A stretch of DNA of 64,000 nt from a phage. Location of the stretch: assembly GCA_019326865.1 (NCBI GenBank), contig GCA_019326865.1_4101.1. One strand, given 5' to 3'. The translations under genes and the position numbers were made by a program. How positions within the stretch are numbered: position 1 is the first letter of the stretch; each line of letters begins with the position of its first letter. A model generated the notes under the pieces. That model searched no databases. It saw only the letters and a program-made list of their open reading frames with translations, and was not told the origin of the DNA. This document shows, one piece after another, positions 872 to 51,874 of this stretch.

Positions 872-2836
872 ATGGCTAAGAAAGAAAGTGCTGTTCTACA
901 GGAACATGATGTTCAACGACTCAACGATTATCAACATGCTCGTTTGCGTACAGAGATGTACCTTGGCTCACGTTCTGTGCATGAAAGTCAAGTATTGATT
1001 TTTGGTGAATCTGGATATGAGGTCAAGAACGTAGAATGGGTTCCTGCAATTCTTACTGCTACACGTGAAATTATTGATAACAGCTTAGATGAATTTAAAA
1101 AAGCTGGAACTAAAGAACCCGTTTTGAAAGTTGATTTCAATGAAGAAGAACTATCATTTGAAATTAGTGATAATGGTCGTGGTATCCCAATCGATTACGT
1201 TCCAGAATATCAAAAAAACTTATGTACTATGGTAATGACCGAAACTAAAACTGGTCGTAACTTTGATGATTCAAAACGTGATGAAACTATTGGTCAGAAT
1301 GGTTTGGGTGGTTCTGTTGCGATGATTGTAAGTTCTAAGGCAGAATTGGAAATTCATCGTCAAGGTCGTCCATATAAAACACAAAGTAGCAATGATGGTT
1401 ATGACGGCTTTTATAAGTTCAATCAGAAGTTTGAGGAAGGGACCATCATGTTCCCTGAACTTTATGTACATGAACCTACTATTAGAAAGGTACAAACAGA
1501 TAAAACTGGAACAACAATTCGTTTCACATTGAGTAAAGAAGTTTTTCCAAATAGAAAACTGCCTACTGAATTACTTTATAGTATTCTTAAAGAAATGGCT
1601 GCCGCTAACCCAACTTATAAAATATTTTTAAATGGTAAACGTATTTCTATTAAAGGAAACACTGAAAAAGCATTATTCAACTCACCTAAATTGATGCAGT
1701 TAAATGTTAAAGATGAATCTTTCAATTTTAACAGTACTTTTTATATTGTTCCTAATGCTGTATCTGGTATGAACACTAACTTTCATATGCATGGATTAGT
1801 TAACAATGCACCTGCTTTTGATGGTGGTACACATCTTGACACATTTAAAAAATTCTTTTCTTTAGGTGTTGGAGCAGCACTAGAGAAAGAATCCAAGAAA
1901 CGTAGAATGAAACCAAACCGTTCTGACATTGAAGAAGGATTGTTGATTTATAACGTCACGACGATGAAAGCACCTTCGTTCAATTCACAGATTAAATCTA
2001 AACTAACAAATGAAAATGTAATTCGTCCTATTCAACAAGCAATGAGTTCTGAGTGGTTTGATGAATTGGTTAAGAAGAATAAAGAGTGGGTTGATGAAAT
2101 TTTTGAACGCTGTGCGGCCCGTACTAATAAGAAAGATGCTGAAGAAGATCGCCGTTTGGCTAAAAAGCTTCTAAAAGGTAAGGTTGCAAAATTACTTGAT
2201 AGTACTGGTACTGATAGATCACAGTGTATTTTGTTGATTGCAGAAGGTGACTCAGCAATTTCTAACATGGCAAGTGCTCGTATACCAAGTATTCATGGGA
2301 TTCTACCATTGCGTGGTAAGATTATGAACGTCAGTGGTTCTGAAAAGACCAAAGAATTAATGGATTCGATGGCATTGCATGACATAATGGCTAGTATCAA
2401 TTTAGTGCCAGGGGTCAAAGCTGACCGAGCAGACCTGAACTATGGTAAACTTTATATTTGTGCAGATGAAGATGAAGACGGTAAAAATATCGGAGCATTA
2501 GTATGTAACTTCCTGTTCAAATTCTGGCCTGAGTTGTTCCAAGATCCAGAAAATCCATTTGTGTACATATTCAAAACTCCATTTATCATTCTAGAGAAAG
2601 GTAAGGAAACAAAATACTACTATGGTCATGATGTACATGAATACAATCCTGACGATTGGAAAGGTTGGAAAGCAACTCGTGCAAAAGGGCTTGGTACGTT
2701 AGAAAAATCAAATTTCCGCGACGCATTCACACATAGTGTTGCAGTAGCAATCACAGATGATGGACGTCTTGGTGAAACTCTTGATTTGATTTTCAACAAG
2801 AAACGTGCAGATGATCGTAAGAACTGGATGGAATAA
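872..2836 (+). CDS. 39: DNA topoisomerase II large subunit (gp39, GyrB-like GHKL ATPase + Toprim) fused with gp60-like C-terminal region
   Basis: 654 aa; GHKL motifs EIIDNSLDE, DNGRGIP, GLGGS; Toprim EGDSA...DEDEDG; length about gp39+gp60 of T4. Confidence 0.85.
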   Translation: MAKKESAVLQEHDVQRLNDYQHARLRTEMYLGSRSVHESQVLIFGESGYEVKNVEWVPAILTATREIIDNSLDEFKKAGTKEPVLKVDFNEEELSFEISDNGRGIPIDYVPEYQKNLCTMVMTETKTGRNFDDSKRDETIGQNGLGGSVAMIVSSKAELEIHRQGRPYKTQSSNDGYDGFYKFNQKFEEGTIMFPELYVHEPTIRKVQTDKTGTTIRFTLSKEVFPNRKLPTELLYSILKEMAAANPTYKIFLNGKRISIKGNTEKALFNSPKLMQLNVKDESFNFNSTFYIVPNAVSGMNTNFHMHGLVNNAPAFDGGTHLDTFKKFFSLGVGAALEKESKKRRMKPNRSDIEEGLLIYNVTTMKAPSFNSQIKSKLTNENVIRPIQQAMSSEWFDELVKKNKEWVDEIFERCAARTNKKDAEEDRRLAKKLLKGKVAKLLDSTGTDRSQCILLIAEGDSAISNMASARIPSIHGILPLRGKIMNVSGSEKTKELMDSMALHDIMASINLVPGVKADRADLNYGKLYICADEDEDGKNIGALVCNFLFKFWPELFQDPENPFVYIFKTPFIILEKGKETKYYYGHDVHEYNPDDWKGWKATRAKGLGTLEKSNFRDAFTHSVAVAITDDGRLGETLDLIFNKKRADDRKNWME

Positions 2837-2845
2837 TATAGGCTA

Positions 2846-2870
2846 ATGGGGGACATAGTGTTCCCCTTTT
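2846..2870 (+). terminator. putative terminator
   Basis: GGGGGAC..GTTCCCC hairpin followed by TTTTAT. Confidence 0.45.
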
Positions 2871-2886
2871 ATAAAGAGACAATGGA

Positions 2887-4299
2887 ATGGCTAAAAGTAA
2901 AAAAACAGAAAATCATAACATCGATAACCAAACGCTAACTCTACTAGATTATAACAGTTCTGATTATGTGAATACCACATCATTAGAGTATTCAATGTAC
3001 ACACTAGACCGTGCAATTCCTGGTATTGATGGTCTAAAGAGTTCACAACGAAAAGCAATTTTCACATTATCTAAAATCAGTGGCGAAATTAAAACAGTAT
3101 CATGTGCTGGTAAAATGATCAGTGATGGTATCTATCTTCATGGGGATACATCTGCATCAGGAACACTTCAGAACTTAGCATCACCAGTAGCCAATAATTA
3201 TCCACTAATAGGTAAACGTGGTGGATTTGGTACACAAGTAAATAGCACACCAGCTTCTGCTCGTTATACGTATGTAAAGAAGAATAAAAGTACTGAAATG
3301 CTCGTGTTACGTGATGCTGATATTATTCCAATGAAAGAGAACTATGATGGGACAACATACGAGCCTGTTCACTTCTTGCCTATTATTCCATTATCATTAT
3401 TTGGTAATGATAGTATGTCAGTTGGGTATAAAAGTACAATCCTACCACATAAAATTGAAGATATTATTGACAATTGTATTCGTGCTATTGATAAAAAACC
3501 ACTAAAAGAAATGACACCATACTATGTGTCATGTGGTGCAAGTGATGTAGTAACAAAGCTTGATGAAAATAAGTACGAGTTTTATGGTAAAGCACAAGTT
3601 ATTGATGCCAGCACTGTTAAAGTGACAGGCTTACCACCAAATTATAGTATTGAGAAGTTCATTGAGAAGCTCATTAAAATGTGCGATGATGGAGAGATAC
3701 GTGACTATGATAATAACAGTACTGATGTAATTGATATTACCATTAAACTACCACGTGGAACATCAGCTAAATGGACAGAGAAAGATGTTATTGATTATTT
3801 TGGAATTAACAAAAAGATCACACAACATTTAACTGTCTTAGGTGAAAATGGTAAAGTGAAAGTTTACGATACAACAATGGATTTGATTAAAGACTTCGTG
3901 AATTTCCGTTTCAAATATTACATCAAGCGTTATGAAAAGAAACTTGATGATTGTGCTGCTGAAGTTCGTTATAAAGTTCTAATTAAAGAATGTTTCGATA
4001 ATGATATGATTGCTAAGGTAAAAGGATTTGCCAACCGTGCGGAGATGGTTGAATTCGTTAAATCATTAAATGTCGAAATTCAAGCAACTGAAGATAATAT
4101 TCAAAGTATTGTAAACTTCCCTTCATATCGCTGGACACAAGATAATTATCAATCAGTTCTACAAGATATCCAGGACAATCTTGATTTGATGGATAAGTAC
4201 AATGAACTACTATCTAATCATGACTTAATTTGGGATATCTACAAATCTGAACTCAAAGAACTAAAAAAAACTGACTTTACTCCTAAATCAGACAATTGA
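2887..4299 (+). CDS. 52: DNA topoisomerase II medium subunit (gp52, GyrA-like)
   Basis: 470 aa; GyrA-like N-terminus with SSQRKAIF and RYTYV (active-site Tyr region). Confidence 0.85.
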   Translation: MAKSKKTENHNIDNQTLTLLDYNSSDYVNTTSLEYSMYTLDRAIPGIDGLKSSQRKAIFTLSKISGEIKTVSCAGKMISDGIYLHGDTSASGTLQNLASPVANNYPLIGKRGGFGTQVNSTPASARYTYVKKNKSTEMLVLRDADIIPMKENYDGTTYEPVHFLPIIPLSLFGNDSMSVGYKSTILPHKIEDIIDNCIRAIDKKPLKEMTPYYVSCGASDVVTKLDENKYEFYGKAQVIDASTVKVTGLPPNYSIEKFIEKLIKMCDDGEIRDYDNNSTDVIDITIKLPRGTSAKWTEKDVIDYFGINKKITQHLTVLGENGKVKVYDTTMDLIKDFVNFRFKYYIKRYEKKLDDCAAEVRYKVLIKECFDNDMIAKVKGFANRAEMVEFVKSLNVEIQATEDNIQSIVNFPSYRWTQDNYQSVLQDIQDNLDLMDKYNELLSNHDLIWDIYKSELKELKKTDFTPKSDN

Positions 4300-13709: not shown

Positions 13710-14858
13710 ATGTCCGAGAAAGAAATCAATCCTAAAAAAACAACTACCGCAGCTAAAACTACAAAACGTTCTACAAAACGTTCTACCAAAACCGCATCCA
13801 AAGGTCATACCATTGATGCAAGTGATATTTTTAACCAAACTACAAAATCACTCCCCGTACTGAAAGATGTTAAGGGAAATACTATGTCTCTAACAGTTCA
13901 AAACATCAACACTGTTGGTACAACTGCTGGTGCTGCTGTTGGGCGATTAGCTGATGAAATCATGTCTAAAGTTAATGTAACTGATGACAATACAGAGTTT
14001 GGAAAATCAATCACCACAATTCTCACATTGACTCGTGCAGTTGATATTGACAGTCTTCAAGAAGATAAATCAATTGTGGGGCGTATTAAGAAATTTTTTG
14101 TTAATGCTCAACAAAAAGTTGGTGATCAGTACAAAAATAGCAAAGAGCAAATTGACGAAATCATGAAAACTCTTCAAACTGGTATTAATCGCCAGCACGG
14201 AGAATGTGAATGGCTTGATAAAGCATATAATGAAAACAAAGAATATTTGTTTGAATTACGTGATACATTAGTTGGTTTGGAAGAAGTAACTAAATCACAA
14301 GATGCATTGTTAGAAGAAATGCAAAAAGACAAAAATGTAGACTCTTTTGCTATTCAAGAGCAGAAGATGATTTGTGAAGCACTTTCTAAACAGGAAGATA
14401 AGATTCGTCGTCTTATTATGATGTGCGAACTAAGTGGTCCACGTCTGATGAGTATGAAAAAAGTAAACTTGAACACTGTTTCTAAGTTTGAAGATTTAAA
14501 ATCTGTTGTTATTCCAGCATGGAAGTCTCAATTGGCTGAACAATTAATTTCCGAGCGTCAACGTAAGGATAATGAACTAGGCAATCTAATTGATAATGAG
14601 ACAAACCGTCTTTTGGAAACTAACTCTAAGATGGTTGCAGCAAATATGTTGGACGCAGCAAAGGCAAACAACCGTGGTATTGTGGATATTAAAACCTTGC
14701 GTAATGTACATAAAACGATGATTGACAGTATTGAAGCAGTTATTGAAGAAGAGAAAAAAGGCAAATTGGAACGTGAACGTGCTAAACAGGAAATTGCACA
14801 ACTTTCCTATGAACTGGAAGACACTCTTCGTGAAATTGCCGAAAAAGCTAACAAGTAA
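13710..14858 (+). CDS. hypothetical protein, basic N-terminus and coiled-coil-rich
   Basis: ORF 382 aa; KTTKRSTKRSTK N-terminus, heptad-like E/K/Q-rich segments. Confidence 0.55.
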   Translation: MSEKEINPKKTTTAAKTTKRSTKRSTKTASKGHTIDASDIFNQTTKSLPVLKDVKGNTMSLTVQNINTVGTTAGAAVGRLADEIMSKVNVTDDNTEFGKSITTILTLTRAVDIDSLQEDKSIVGRIKKFFVNAQQKVGDQYKNSKEQIDEIMKTLQTGINRQHGECEWLDKAYNENKEYLFELRDTLVGLEEVTKSQDALLEEMQKDKNVDSFAIQEQKMICEALSKQEDKIRRLIMMCELSGPRLMSMKKVNLNTVSKFEDLKSVVIPAWKSQLAEQLISERQRKDNELGNLIDNETNRLLETNSKMVAANMLDAAKANNRGIVDIKTLRNVHKTMIDSIEAVIEEEKKGKLERERAKQEIAQLSYELEDTLREIAEKANK

Positions 14859-14861
14859 TAG

Positions 14862-14890
14862 TTGACATATGAGTGCGTTTTTAATATAAT
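14862..14890 (+). promoter_or_regulatory. sigma70-like promoter (TTGACA-17-TATAAT) embedded in a hairpin
   Basis: -35 TTGACA, -10 TATAAT; the -10 lies in the loop of inverted repeat GAGTGCGTTTT / AAAACGCACTC. Confidence 0.45.
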
Positions 14891-14914
14891 CTTATTGAAA
14901 ACGCACTCTTTTTA
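14871..14914 (+). terminator. hairpin plus T-run (terminator-like, overlapping promoter)
   Basis: 11-bp inverted repeat with 16-nt loop followed by TTTTT. Confidence 0.4.
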
Positions 14915-14937: not shown

Positions 14938-15627
14938 ATGAAACGTCGTCATATTAGTGTTGATATTGAAACTCTTGGAACACCTGAACTTTCCGGTTAT
15001 GATATTATTATCCCAAATTATGCAGCAGTTGTAGTTCCAAGTAAACCTGAAAATGACATTCATCAGTTCTTATATGTTAAATTACCATACCAAGATCAAG
15101 TTGCTGCTGGATTAAAATCAGACGCAGGTGCAATGGATTTTTGGATGAATACATGCCAGAAAGAATATCCAAATGCATATACTGAAGTTGCTAGTACTAT
15201 GAAAATCAAAGCACCTGAATTATATGGACCTAATGAACAATCACGACGTTTTTTTGCATACAGTAGTATTGTTGATTTTTGGAAAGAATTACGTTACAAT
15301 GAACATGGCGAAGAAGTTCCTCATTCTGTATGGGGTAATGGATGCAACTTCGATTGTAGTATTTTACAAGCAAACCATTTAAAATTAATGAACGCGGGTG
15401 AATTGTGGAAGTATGATGCACCTGAAAATGCACGCACATTGAAACGTTTATTGAATGAAGAAGCTCGTATTGAAATGGATGAAATCGTCTCGGTACAATT
15501 GGCTAAATTTGTTACATATGCAAACAAGTGTGGGATCAATGGGTTGGAGTTGCACCACCCACTGTTTGATGCGGCACGTGAAGCAATCCAGATTTCATTT
15601 TGTCTAAACAAGCTTAAAATGGATTAA
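14938..15627 (+). CDS. dexA: exonuclease A (DexA-like, DnaQ-type 3'-5' exonuclease)
   Basis: 229 aa; motifs ISVDIETLG, WGNGCNFDCSIL, HHPLFDAAREA parallel T4 DexA DFETMG / FDFPIL / H..D. Confidence 0.75.
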   Translation: MKRRHISVDIETLGTPELSGYDIIIPNYAAVVVPSKPENDIHQFLYVKLPYQDQVAAGLKSDAGAMDFWMNTCQKEYPNAYTEVASTMKIKAPELYGPNEQSRRFFAYSSIVDFWKELRYNEHGEEVPHSVWGNGCNFDCSILQANHLKLMNAGELWKYDAPENARTLKRLLNEEARIEMDEIVSVQLAKFVTYANKCGINGLELHHPLFDAAREAIQISFCLNKLKMD

Positions 15628-17285: not shown

Positions 17286-17310
17286 GGGGGTACTTTGTAC
17301 CCCCTTTTCT
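17286..17310 (+). terminator. rho-independent terminator
   Basis: GGGGGTAC tttg TACCCCC followed by TTTTCT. Confidence 0.6.
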
Positions 17311-18478: not shown

Positions 18479-18832
18479 ATGCTAATTTATTTAAGTGTTA
18501 TTGTGATTTCATTACTGGTATCATTCGCTGTTCTTAAAATTGTTGCTATTTGTAGAAGTAAGATTGATAGTTTTGAAACTAGATCAGTACTTGACTTGAT
18601 TATGGACCATCCTAAAATCTGTGGTATTATTGTATTATTCGTTGTACTGATTAATACATATATTGTCAGGGAACATTTATATAATATGTATGATTGTAGT
18701 GTGCGTTCTATTTCACAAGGTGTTGAAACAGACTATAGTTGGTACTATGAGAAATGTCGATTTAAAAACCAGCATGGTATTTGGGTTGATTTTGATAAAC
18801 TACGTGGAACACCTTCAGGAGAAGAAGAATAA
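18479..18832 (+). CDS. small membrane protein
   Basis: 117 aa; two hydrophobic segments. Confidence 0.5.
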   Translation: MLIYLSVIVISLLVSFAVLKIVAICRSKIDSFETRSVLDLIMDHPKICGIIVLFVVLINTYIVREHLYNMYDCSVRSISQGVETDYSWYYEKCRFKNQHGIWVDFDKLRGTPSGEEE

Positions 18833-18834
18833 TT

Positions 18835-19326
18835 ATGTTTGAATTCCCAGAAGAGTCATTTAACTTCATTGACCCTACTGATGATGGATACCGACATATT
18901 AACATTTATAGTAAAGCCAGAACGAAGTTGGGTAGAGATCTATCTAACTTTTCTTCGCATAGCTTCACACTTGAACCATATGGTTGGTTCCCTTCAGTTG
19001 AAACATTTTACTTTTGGTTTTTAACTGGGCAAAAACATGATGACCTTAGAAAAGTATCTGGTGCAGCAGCAAAAGCAGCCGCTAACAAATATATGCATGA
19101 TCGAATTGAAATGACGGATGATTGTATTTCTATTATTCAAGATGCTATTTGTGCTAAGATAATTCAAAATCCAGAGTTAGCCGAAAGATTAAGAAAAAGC
19201 AAGTTGCCTTTTTACCATTACTATGTATATGGTGGTAAAGTTGTAGATGTATCCAACGAACATGATTGGTTTGTTAAAACATTCGAATATATAAGAACTG
19301 TGTTAAAGGAAAACTATGATGGGTAA
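18835..19326 (+). CDS. NADAR (YbiA/DUF1768)-like protein
   Basis: 163 aa; LSNF..SVETFYF and AKIIQNPELAERL segments match NADAR pattern (SNF..SEHYFQ / KF.QNP.L). Confidence 0.45.
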   Translation: MFEFPEESFNFIDPTDDGYRHINIYSKARTKLGRDLSNFSSHSFTLEPYGWFPSVETFYFWFLTGQKHDDLRKVSGAAAKAAANKYMHDRIEMTDDCISIIQDAICAKIIQNPELAERLRKSKLPFYHYYVYGGKVVDVSNEHDWFVKTFEYIRTVLKENYDG

Positions 19327-19597
19327 ATGTTGGGTATGCTTCAAGGTGTTTGATGAAGAATATGAAATAATATTAGATGTATTGCCACAGCAGTACATGG
19401 TATGTAATGAAAAATACAAATTGGACACCTACCCGACCCCCAAGTACATGGGAATATGTCCTTTGTGTGATGCAAATGGCGTGTCCAATAGTGAGATTTC
19501 ATTCACTAACCAAGCCACAACTAACTGTGTATCTGGGTATATAAGAGAGAATCGAGAATATTTTATTAGGAGATTATATGAACGACAAAATCTTTGA
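19316..19597 (+). CDS. small Cys-rich (zinc-ribbon-like) protein
   Basis: 93 aa; CWVC...CPLC pairs. Confidence 0.45.
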   Translation: MMGKCWVCFKVFDEEYEIILDVLPQQYMVCNEKYKLDTYPTPKYMGICPLCDANGVSNSEISFTNQATTNCVSGYIRENREYFIRRLYERQNL

Positions 19598-22084: not shown

Positions 22085-22110
22085 TGCCCCGTTTTTCGGG
22101 GCATTTTTAT
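22085..22110 (+). terminator. hairpin plus T-run
   Basis: GCCCCG ttttt CGGGGC followed by ATTTTTATT. Confidence 0.5.
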
Positions 22111-25325: not shown

Positions 25326-27221
25326 ATGAAACCTATCCGAGTACTATCTCTTTTTAATGGGATGAGTGTAGGATACATGGCATTAAAAGATGCTGGTATC
25401 CCTGTTGAAAAATATTATTCATCCGAAATTGACAAATTTGCTATAGCTGAATCCCAAGCTAACTTCCCCGATATCATCCAATTGGGTGATGTAACTAGAT
25501 GGAAAGAATGGGATATCGAATGGGACAAGATAGATCTACTGATGGGTGGTTTTCCATGCTTCCCAGCAGGAACTATGATAATGACAAATAAAGGTCATAA
25601 AGATATAAAAGATATAAAAATTGGTGATATGGTTCTTACACACACTGGACAGTACCAAAAAGTATTGAGTACTTGTGTAAAACAAGCACCAACTAGAATT
25701 ATATCAGGTCAGGGCCATTTACCTATTGAATGTACCGATAATCACCCATTTTATTCGAGAGTTTTGGGTAAAAAATGGAATAATGCCAAACGTCAATATG
25801 ATAGAATAGCAAGCGATGCAGAATGGGTATATGCATCAGAATTAACACCAAATCATTTACTATGTAATGTAAAATCATCGTATGTTCGTGAATCATCATT
25901 GAGAGATGAAAAATTTTGGTATTTTATGGGTAGATTTGCAGGAGATGGGTGGGTATCAAAAGTTAAACGTCAAAAAAGAAAAAATAGTTATGTATATAAA
26001 GTGTTAATGTGTTGTGCACATGATGAATTTGATGAATTGGTTGAATGTTTTGATGGTTTAAAAATGAATTATAATTATACCAAAGAACGCACTTCATATA
26101 AATTTTATATTACATCAAAAACTTTACTTGAATTCTGTGAAAAGATGGGGAAAGGTGCTTCTAATAAAATTGTTCATCCTGAATTATGGTCCGAATGTGT
26201 AGAAAATAAAAAAGCTTTTCTTGAAGGGTACATATCGGCTGACGGTCATTACTATGATGGTAAATGGCACATTACATCAACATCATCAAACATGATATTG
26301 GGTATACAGCAATTAGTCATGGACATTTATGGAAGGCATGTGAATATACATAAAGTCACACCGTCACCCACTAAGATTATTGAGGGACGTATAGTAAATC
26401 AAAAACCGTGGTACAGAATAGAATTCACTGAAAATCCACTAAAACATGAAAATGCTTTTTATGATGATGATACGTATGCTTGGGTAAACGGTGTCAAAAA
26501 AAGTATACCTACAAATGAAATAAAAGACGTATATTCATTTGAAGTTGCAGTAGATAACACATATACGGCGAACAATATTGTAGTTCATAACTGTCAAGCG
26601 TGGTCAGTTGCTGGGAAACAAGGCGGTGTGAATGACCCTCGTGGTATGTTATTCCATACAATGGTTGATATTTACCAGCACATAAAAAGTCTCAATCCAG
26701 ACTTGAAAGTACTGTTCGAGAATGTTAAAATGAAAGAAGATTTCAAGCAATACATTAATAGTGTTCTTGAGATGACACCAGTACTGATAAATTCCCAGCA
26801 TTATACGCCTCACTTCAGGCAGAGATATTACTGGTACAGTACTGATAAACTTTTTATACCACCTGCATTATCCAATGCACCTAAACTTCAAGATATTATT
26901 GAAGATGGTTGGTACACTGACAGAACCGCTTCGTACTGTATAGATGCTAACTATTTTAAGGGTGGTGATTGTAACCAGTACTTTAATAAATCAAGAAGAC
27001 AAATTGTTTTCAAAGAACCTGATATCGATAGGGATTTCCTTCTTGAACATGGTAAGCGAAATGTGGACTATCGTCATTTAACAGTACAAGAGTGTTGCAT
27101 GTTGCAAGGAATTGATGTAAACTACTTCAAAGTTAGTAGTTCAACACAAGCATACAAAATGCTTGGGAATGGATGGACTATGCCAGTTATATCACACTTA
27201 CTACGAGATATATTCTTTTGA
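25326..27221 (+). CDS. DNA (cytosine-5)-methyltransferase precursor interrupted by an intein
   Basis: Extein motifs: I LFNGMSVG, IV GGFP|CQAWSVAGK (split by insert), VI FENV, VIII QRYYW, IX RHLTVQECCMLQGI, X LGNGWTMPV; extein about 286 aa. Confidence 0.8.
   Translation: MKPIRVLSLFNGMSVGYMALKDAGIPVEKYYSSEIDKFAIAESQANFPDIIQLGDVTRWKEWDIEWDKIDLLMGGFPCFPAGTMIMTNKGHKDIKDIKIGDMVLTHTGQYQKVLSTCVKQAPTRIISGQGHLPIECTDNHPFYSRVLGKKWNNAKRQYDRIASDAEWVYASELTPNHLLCNVKSSYVRESSLRDEKFWYFMGRFAGDGWVSKVKRQKRKNSYVYKVLMCCAHDEFDELVECFDGLKMNYNYTKERTSYKFYITSKTLLEFCEKMGKGASNKIVHPELWSECVENKKAFLEGYISADGHYYDGKWHITSTSSNMILGIQQLVMDIYGRHVNIHKVTPSPTKIIEGRIVNQKPWYRIEFTENPLKHENAFYDDDTYAWVNGVKKSIPTNEIKDVYSFEVAVDNTYTANNIVVHNCQAWSVAGKQGGVNDPRGMLFHTMVDIYQHIKSLNPDLKVLFENVKMKEDFKQYINSVLEMTPVLINSQHYTPHFRQRYYWYSTDKLFIPPALSNAPKLQDIIEDGWYTDRTASYCIDANYFKGGDCNQYFNKSRRQIVFKEPDIDRDFLLEHGKRNVDYRHLTVQECCMLQGIDVNYFKVSSSTQAYKMLGNGWTMPVISHLLRDIFF
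25557..26591 (+). mobile_element. intein (about 345 aa) with LAGLIDADG homing-endonuclease motifs, inserted before catalytic Cys of PCQ motif
   Basis: Begins CFPAGTMIMT..IGDMVLTHTG (block A), ..TDNHPFY (block B), LAGLIDADG-like FMGRFAGDGWV and FLEGYISADGHYY, ends NNIVVHN followed by C (+1 Cys of CQAW). Confidence 0.75.
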
Positions 27222-50920: not shown

Positions 50921-51874
50921 TTGAAAAAACTAGATTTGAATGCAATTGCAGATGAAGTACTGGATGAATGTTTTTCTAGTGAAGAAGTCAATACACTTGA
51001 TGCATTAGATTCAGTTCAAGATGAAGATAAAGTTCAAAGTAATTTCAAGTTTAATATTAGTCTTAAGCGTCCACATAATGTAACAAATGAAGATCTAATT
51101 CGTGATATTCAAGCTGGAATCAATGTAAAGAAAAACACTGAACTATTAGTTCGTTATAATTATGGACTAATTGTTGATGTTGCAAGTAAATGCACATGTT
51201 ATATCCCATTTGAAGATAAGATATCATATGGTATTGAGGGATTCATGCGAGCACTAAAAACATTTGATCTTAGTAAGAATGTCAAGTTCGTTACATACGC
51301 ATCTTCCAGCATTTATATGACAGTATACAATGAAAGTTCAGATGCCAATCATCTGGTACATTTTCCCCGCTATATGAGTGTTAATAAGATCCAAGTTAAA
51401 CGCTTTTGTCATGAATACGAGCGTAAGCACGGTTGTCGTCCAACACCTGAACAAATTTCAGAGGGAACGGGAATTGAAATTCAACATGTAAAGAATTGTT
51501 TGTTATTCCAAAGTGAATATACGGCATTGGATGCACCATTGGATGGTGTTTCGGATGGTACGTTAAGTGATATTCTTCATACATCTGCTTGCGATTATAA
51601 TCTTAGTGTTGATAGTATTCGTGCACCGTTGCGTTATGTCATTAATGATCTAACACATGAATTGAGTACAAAAGAACGTGAAATTATCCAGCGTGTTCAT
51701 GGTTTAGGTGAATTTAATCCTGAATCACTACGTGAAATTGCTGATAGTGGGTTTGTTGATGACAATGGTAAATGTGTTAAATCAAGATCATCTGTGCACC
51801 GTAAATATAGTGAAGCTATAAAAAAGCTTAAGAAATTAGTACTTGAAAAAGGGTACGAATACGAAGATTTCTAA
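50921..51874 (+). CDS. sigma70-family RNA polymerase sigma factor-like protein (TTG start)
   Basis: 317 aa; region 2.2-like GIEGFMRALKTFDLSKNVKFVTYASSSI, region 2.3/2.4-like HLVHFPRYMSVNKIQ..GCRPTPEQISE, region 4-like EREIIQRVHGLGE..SLREIAD...KSRSSVHRKYSEAIKKLKK; AGGAG before TTG. Confidence 0.6.
   Translation: MKKLDLNAIADEVLDECFSSEEVNTLDALDSVQDEDKVQSNFKFNISLKRPHNVTNEDLIRDIQAGINVKKNTELLVRYNYGLIVDVASKCTCYIPFEDKISYGIEGFMRALKTFDLSKNVKFVTYASSSIYMTVYNESSDANHLVHFPRYMSVNKIQVKRFCHEYERKHGCRPTPEQISEGTGIEIQHVKNCLLFQSEYTALDAPLDGVSDGTLSDILHTSACDYNLSVDSIRAPLRYVINDLTHELSTKEREIIQRVHGLGEFNPESLREIADSGFVDDNGKCVKSRSSVHRKYSEAIKKLKKLVLEKGYEYEDF

Follow-up and report, generated by a model that had tools for sequence, protein, structure and literature searches.

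A highly diverged NADAR-fold protein encoded by an Asteriusvirus-type jumbo coliphage, a candidate ADP-ribosyl N-glycohydrolase of counter-defence

This study focused on a small gene of a jumbo coliphage, and on whether it encodes a NADAR enzyme and what such an enzyme might do for the phage. The window (the whole 64-kb stretch of DNA analysed) comes from an Asteriusvirus-type phage, with ~97% identity over 2 kb to UB, JP4, phAPEC6, SP27 and 121Q, and in every listed relative the gene is annotated as "hypothetical protein". An initial annotation had noted a NADAR/YbiA pattern in the ORF, and both the ORF and the quoted strings (RDLSNFSSHSF...PSVETFYF and AKIIQNPELAERLRKSKLPF) were found to be as described. 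It had also pointed to reports that NADAR enzymes remove ADP-ribose from DNA guanine modified by DarT-type toxins, for which AdfN provides the precedent (PMC11257639, PMC11825919), and had suggested that a phage NADAR could neutralise DarTG-like defence or act on other ADP-ribosylated substrates. Its interpretation is supported as essentially right, and the kind of gene is known, phage NADARs and their counter-defence role having already been published.

The position of the gene and of the residues discussed below is given in Table 1. The gene sits in a dense array of genes on the same strand: its start codon lies 2 nt past the stop of the upstream ORF, and its 3' end is overlapped by the ORF downstream. 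Comparison with the BF17 orthologue gave a dN/dS of ~0.02 (pN 0.04, pS 0.69, with synonymous sites near saturation), and comparison with that of Klebsiella phage K64-1, computed via the JP4 orthologue, gave ~0.05. Because both values are low, the gene is functional and under strong purifying selection.

Table 1. Coordinates of the NADAR-fold gene, its putative ribosome-binding signal and the residues compared with known NADARs
Feature	Position	Strand	Remarks
CDS of the NADAR-fold protein, 163 aa	18835..19326	+	ATG start; stop codon included
AGGAG, putative Shine-Dalgarno-like motif	18817..18821	+	13 nt 5' of the ATG, within the end of the upstream ORF; read from the sequence
L36-S37-N38-F39, NADAR 'SNF' signature before the first beta-hairpin	18940..18951	+	aligned to LSNF/FSNF of 8BAU and YbiA, and ALSNF of gp30.3
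E56, equivalent of the catalytic Glu (PnNADAR E43, E. coli C7 NADAR E88, AdfN-T4 E36)	19000..19002	+	alignments to 8BAU, gp30.3 and YbiA
L63, at the column of the phosphate-binding Lys (Pn K50, C7 K95, AdfN K43)	19021..19023	+	hhalign, opposite gp30.3 K43
K80, aligned to PnNADAR K75 (= C7 K115)	19072..19074	+	profile alignment to 8BAU
N84, at the column of the pyrophosphate-binding Arg (R79) of PnNADAR and YbiA	19084-19086	+	alignment
H128-Y129-Y130, start of the C-terminal beta-hairpin	19216..19224	+	hhalign, H128 opposite T4 gp30.3 H123
Terminal alpha-helix, residues 144-162, including W145 and R154	19264..19320	+	secondary structure of the model; aligned to the terminal helix of gp30.3

Searches with the single 163-aa protein were empty: Pfam returned no family at E ≤ 10, including PF08719 and PF08010, there was no match in NCBIfam, PDB sequences or PADLOC, and pairwise BLASTP against T4 gp30.3 gave no alignment. 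Family profiles were therefore needed, and with these the protein was placed in the NADAR superfamily, as a highly diverged member, by five independent tests. A profile made from an alignment of 27 homologous sequences, searched across the PDB, gave two matches only, and both were NADARs: 8BAU (E 1.1e-4), the Phytophthora nicotianae NADAR (PnNADAR) with ADP-ribose, and 2B3W (E 4.8e-4), E. coli YbiA. Family alignments of gp30.3 and of YbiA were built separately, and comparison by hhalign matched the protein's family to that of gp30.3 over nearly its full length (96.9%, E 1.5e-10, 139 columns) and to that of YbiA over 134 columns (94.6%, E 6.5e-8); as a benchmark, gp30.3 and YbiA matched each other at 98.1% (E 1e-13, 126 columns). 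The protein and T4 gp30.3 share phrog_652, which they match at profile positions 115-275 (3.6e-45) and 126-272 (9.2e-51), respectively. As a control for chance, all 362 stop-to-stop ORFs of the window were ranked with an HMM made from gp30.3 relatives only and with one made from YbiA relatives only, and the ORF came first with each; the same HMMs revealed no NADAR paralogue among these ORFs. The initial suggestion of a NADAR-like protein is thus supported by the profile matches. The check it had proposed, an HHpred/Pfam search for NADAR (PF08719), succeeded in that the family profile matches NADARs, but the single sequence does not match PF08719 directly.

Judged from these comparisons, the closest lineage is that of the phage gp30.3/AdfN proteins and not that of YbiA. 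Homologues were detected by tblastn in 504 phage records, among them jumbo phages, Ackermannviridae, and phages of Vibrio, Klebsiella, Erwinia and Pseudomonas; almost all are labelled "hypothetical" and one is annotated as "putative N-glycosidase". An exhaustive profile search with a threshold of E ≤ 1e-3 retrieved 2,089 representatives of clusters formed at 50% identity, of which 646 remained at E ≤ 1e-30. The clade is large and dominated by phages, and its carriers include Vibrio phages, Ackermannviridae and jumbo phages such as Asteriusvirus. Existing models capture it poorly. PF08719 matched weakly and in just 5 of 27 relatives (best E 0.024), matches of relatives to PF08010 ranged from E 0.0042 to 4.4e-6, with one member (P0029) scoring 20.4 bits against a cut-off of 36 bits, and the two PHROGs matched by the protein itself, phrog_652 and phrog_11222, carry no known function.

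Key positions of NADARs have been described in several families (PMC11543638, PMC11125620). They comprise a Glu that follows the SNF motif, a Lys that stands seven residues further on and binds phosphate, being essential where tested and largely conserved across the superfamily, basic residues K75 and R79 (PnNADAR numbering), and a catalytic residue in the last strand, which is Glu in YbiA, Asp in BC4488/DarG1 and His in the phage gp30.3 type, where it is a hallmark. Conservation at these positions was counted across 176 diverse members of the clade. The SNF signature is well kept (L 169/176, S 159/176, N 173/176, F 167/176), E56, whose equivalent has a demonstrated catalytic role (PMC11543638, PMC11257639), is invariant (176/176), and H128 is present in 173 of the 176, followed by Y129 and Y130 (170/176 each). 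The strands of the C-terminal hairpin fall at residues 129-132 and 135-138 of the predicted structure model; relative to YbiA E125, the register of H128 in the hhalign alignment is ambiguous by a few residues. K80 is likewise conserved (174/176), and its equivalent in C7 is needed for in vivo rescue from DarT1 (PMC11543638). In the terminal helix, R154 lies opposite gp30.3 R149, and loss of this helix in RB69 AdfN has been associated with non-function (PMC11257639).

Two of the three canonical catalytic features, the Glu and the His, are thus present, but the third, the Lys at Glu+7, is absent. A Lys at this column occurs in just 14 of 176 members (8%), and a check of Lys63-bearing members (n=15) for loss of another basic residue gave no clear signal of compensation. 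At position 84, Arg or Lys is found in 128 of the 176 (73%), and the Asn of the window protein switches with Lys among orthologues that are 99% identical, one cluster representative (P0001) carrying Lys. About 15 polar or aromatic positions besides E56 and H128 are conserved in the clade. N23 is found in 176/176 members, D17 and H21 in 170/176 each and K108 in 169/176, and D17, H21, N23, Y129, Y130 and W145 are invariants specific to the clade, being absent from gp30.3 and YbiA. The protein belongs to a distinct, Lys-less clade, which the curated models PF08719 and PF08010 do not reach, and whose own set of invariants may mean a different substrate.

What the protein does can be approached from a counterpart characterised by experiment. 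AdfN of T4 (gp30.3), an orphan NADAR, strips ADP-ribose from phage DNA modified by DarT1 and is both necessary and sufficient against DarTG1, and it is inactivated by either of the substitutions E36A and K43A (PMC11257639, PMC11825919). The window protein resembles AdfN-T4 (Pfam PF08010, Phage_30_3) in belonging to the same PHROG, in its size, and in being stand-alone and phage-borne, and the two share the LSNF motif, the Glu (E56/E36), the His (H128/H123) and a terminal helix with an Arg (R154/R149). They differ in that neither pairwise BLAST nor PF08010 connects them, that the essential K43 of AdfN aligns to L63, that the N-terminal segment of the window clade is extended and highly conserved (D17-G-x-x-H21-I-N23-I-Y-S-K), and that its members have an 'HYY' motif where gp30.3 has 'HS'. 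Moreover, AdfN-T4 has been validated by experiment (PMC11825919), whereas the window clade is known by sequence comparison.

By analogy, a stand-alone NADAR-fold protein of this lineage would bind ADP-ribose that is linked to a nucleobase and would hydrolyse the N-glycosidic bond between ribose and base by means of two residues, E56 where helix 1 begins and H128 where the C-terminal hairpin begins. The most likely substrate would be the N2-ADP-ribosyl-guanine that toxins of the DarT1 type leave on phage DNA, and removal of the ADP-ribose would then allow the phage to replicate in hosts carrying DarTG1. The analysis shows the fold, membership of the superfamily, the kept Glu and His, the purifying selection and the ADP-ribose-related fusions of relatives; from these we infer catalysis, substrate and counter-defence role, and consider that there is an even chance of the protein being an orphan ADP-ribosyl N-glycohydrolase of counter-defence, directed most likely against guanine ADP-ribosylation of the DarT1 type. 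This reading is preferred because every NADAR family tested hydrolyses guanine-ADPr (PMC11125620, PMC12945103), and because all three phage NADARs tested counter DarTG1, though not DarTG2 (PMC11825919). Of the possible ways of working, one like that of AdfN, DarG1 and YbiA would be the best supported. Against this reading stand the replacement of the Glu+7 Lys by L63 and of the R79 equivalent by N84, the invariants peculiar to the clade, the empty direct searches against PF08719 and PF08010, and the view of the Aravind-lab surveys that soluble derivatives of ADP-ribose are what most phage NADARs act on (PMC9503650).

AdfN-Bas32, from T5-like phages, and AdfN-Bas60, from Vequintavirinae, were acquired independently and are divergent, yet still counter DarTG1, and they group with canonical NADARs of archaea and bacteria rather than with gp30.3 (PMC11825919). 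The window protein can be likened to them, by description only, as a stand-alone phage-borne NADAR outside the T4 group; phage rV5, taken as a Vequintavirinae proxy for AdfN-Bas60, gave no NADAR-like ORF with any of three HMMs. Another group acting on this substrate, the DarG1-type antitoxins (BC4488 family, including E. coli C7 and the G. lovleyi NADAR, PDB 8BAT), was considered and rejected as an identity for the protein, because the gene lacks a DarT partner and the protein lacks the catalytic Asp. No DarT gene is adjacent and no ART domain occurs in the flanks, a His stands in place of the Asp (C7 D171), and the 163-aa protein is without the N-terminal extension of the fold. No toxin neighbour was found in the annotations of relatives, and PADLOC gave no match. 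Identity to PnNADAR (8BAU) is 17-21%, and its K50, R79 and E125 are not conserved as such.

The missing Lys, the invariants specific to the clade and the fusion contexts of relatives keep in play the alternatives of a soluble substrate, an RNA substrate and a non-catalytic protein. In general terms, it is doubtful, but deserving of consideration, that the Lys-less clade, with invariants of its own (D17, H21, N23, H128-Y-Y and W145), acts on something other than DarT1-modified guanine, such as another ADP-ribosylated base or a soluble immune signal derived from NAD, and that the defence countered is other than DarTG1.

The more specific proposal, that the protein hydrolyses low-molecular-weight ADP-ribose derivatives (variants of cyclic ADPR, or ADPr-1''-phosphate) and so blunts NAD-derived signalling defences, seems unlikely, although the relatives lend it some weight. 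More than half of the best 150 relatives, out of the 2,089 cluster representatives, are multi-domain, and the partners in the 84 multi-domain relatives include DUF4326 (25), YAcAr SLOG (18), DprA-like (10), Macro (6), DUF488-N3a (6) and canonical NADAR (1) domains, as well as phosphoesterases and exonucleases. The same set of contexts has been described for viral NADARs in the Aravind-lab surveys, which read such architectures as the multi-step processing of soluble ADPr derivatives (PMC9503650, PMC7824862), and loss of the phosphate-binding Lys, together with the distinct invariants, is compatible with another pose of the ligand. However, no NADAR is known from experiments to act on such signals, all those tested cleaving base-linked ADPr (PMC11125620, PMC12945103), the three phage NADARs mentioned above act against DarTG1, and the window protein is a stand-alone domain. 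Neighbour scans (PHROG and Pfam) and the JP4 annotation revealed no ART, Macro, Nudix or SLOG gene near it or across the 64-kb window, and the flanking genes fall into PHROGs of unknown function or of virion proteins, which are uninformative on its role.

It is improbable that the protein instead reverses ADP-ribosylation of RNA (linked to guanine, cytosine or otherwise), or clears ADPr by-products of RNA repair, in protection of phage transcripts or tRNAs. The tested NADAR families do all remove guanine-ADPr from RNA as well, and some remove cytidine-ADPr (PMC12945103), the window holds a tRNA cluster, and a fusion to an Rv2179c-like 3'-5' exoribonuclease occurs in one relative, the same domain being found in a gene 3.2 kb upstream of the NADAR gene (14938-15627, plus strand; Pfam E 3.2e-10). 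This link is found in 1 of 84 fusions, however, and the shared domain may be coincidental; RNA ligase, KptA and 2H genes were not found nearby, and no anti-phage toxin that ADP-ribosylates guanine in RNA was found in the papers cited here.

It is quite improbable that the protein, though still of NADAR fold, has lost catalysis or been put to another use, for example as a binder of ADP-ribose or nucleic acid or as a stoichiometric inhibitor. Such a fate would fit the L63 and N84 substitutions and the N/K switching at position 84, but the conservation is that of an enzyme, extending from the Glu and His to the further polar and aromatic positions, selection on the gene is strong, and members of the clade have been fused repeatedly to other enzymes of ADPr metabolism. 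Very improbable indeed is a metabolic N-glycosidase acting, like YbiA, on intermediates of the riboflavin pathway, for which the 'putative N-glycosidase' label in one phage record could be cited, because the hallmark last-strand Glu and the D130/W133 motif are not conserved, the clade lies nearer to gp30.3 than to YbiA and is overwhelmingly phage-borne with ADPr-type fusion partners, and no riboflavin genes were found nearby.

The relationship to YbiA itself was also considered. E. coli YbiA (2B3W; PF08719) is a cellular gene of the LexA regulon, unlike the phage gene described here, and its product is an N-glycosidase that acts on riboflavin intermediates and, in vitro, hydrolyses guanine-ADPr as well. 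Its hallmark K55 is not kept in the window protein, and the residues invariant in the YbiA alignment (E125, D130 and W133) have no conserved counterparts in the window clade, which has H128-Y-Y instead. Membership of the YbiA subfamily was rejected because the last-strand Glu is absent.

With guanine-linked ADP-ribose on phage DNA as the favoured substrate, the gene would add to a class of anti-defence enzymes validated only recently (AdfN against DarTG1). Homologues in ~500 deposited phage genomes are almost all labelled "hypothetical protein" and are missed by the curated Pfam and NCBIfam models; once the clade is recognised, anti-defence annotation would reach jumbo coliphages, Ackermannviridae, and many phages of Vibrio, Klebsiella and Erwinia. 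Some such phages are considered for therapy or biocontrol, and the annotation would predict growth on hosts carrying DarTG1. A strongly conserved clade lacking a Lys that is regarded as indispensable in DarG1 and AdfN also offers a natural test of how NADAR catalysis and specificity are currently understood. The main value of the finding lies in the annotation of a large clade that had gone unrecognised, and in what a NADAR without the canonical Lys acts on, and by what means.

The immediate neighbours are small genes. The one upstream (18479-18832, plus strand) encodes a small protein whose N-terminal segments are hydrophobic and TM-like and whose C-terminal tail (ETDYSWYYEKCRFKN..G.WVD.D) is conserved. 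In Klebsiella phage K64-1 its orthologue (L005:2598-2960; 49% identity) is named 'WWE domain-containing protein' in RefSeq, which would imply an ADP-ribose-binding context, but this was rejected, as neither protein has a WWE match in Pfam and each is small, with two TM segments. Downstream, and overlapping the stop of the NADAR gene by 11 nt, lies a gene (19316-19597, plus strand) for a 93-aa Cys-rich protein (phrog_35738) with a zinc-ribbon-like CxxC ... CxxC pattern. A small overlapping gene likewise follows the NADAR orthologues of JP4, BF17 and K64-1, and the Cys-rich protein may be a translationally coupled partner. In Xanthomonas phage XbC2 (Mimasvirus), which carries an orthologue of the clade 47.9% identical to the window protein, a 'putative ADP-ribosylglycohydrolase' is annotated ~3 kb downstream of it (L007:6291-6480), an arrangement suggesting that, in some relatives, genes for ADP-ribose processing may lie close together.

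A scan for promoters and terminators found promoter-like sites not significantly enriched (65, against 52 ± 8 expected), and therefore no claim is made on the timing of expression. A perfect sigma-70 consensus (TTGACA-17-TATAAT, 12/12) is present at 14862-14890 (plus strand), just upstream of the exonuclease gene, and overlaps a 16-bp terminator-like hairpin at 14871-14908 (plus strand). Strong terminator-like hairpins at 17286-17304 and 22085-22103 flank the block that includes the NADAR gene.

Elsewhere, most of the 64 kb consists of small ORFs without family assignment. Further genes with an assignable product on the plus strand, at 872-4299, 13710-14858 and 50921-51874, specify both subunits of a type II topoisomerase (GyrB-like, 654 aa; GyrA/ParC-like, 470 aa), a member of the TelA family and a factor of the sigma-70 family. 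Between 36194 and 41119 (plus strand) are seven tRNA genes, for Gly-TCC (two), Arg-TCT, Met, Asn, Thr and Ser, the last (92 nt) being assigned the unusual anticodon ACT by ARAGORN, with small ORFs between them; the set at the collinear position of JP4 is somewhat different. A 631-aa C5-cytosine DNA methyltransferase (25326-27221, plus strand) contains an intein-like insert, its Pfam DNA_methylase match being split into three stretches and accompanied by Hint_2 and LAGLIDADG_3. At the same place the collinear JP4 encodes an uninterrupted DNA methyltransferase of 287 aa, and so Asteriusviruses appear to differ in whether they carry the intein or homing endonuclease.
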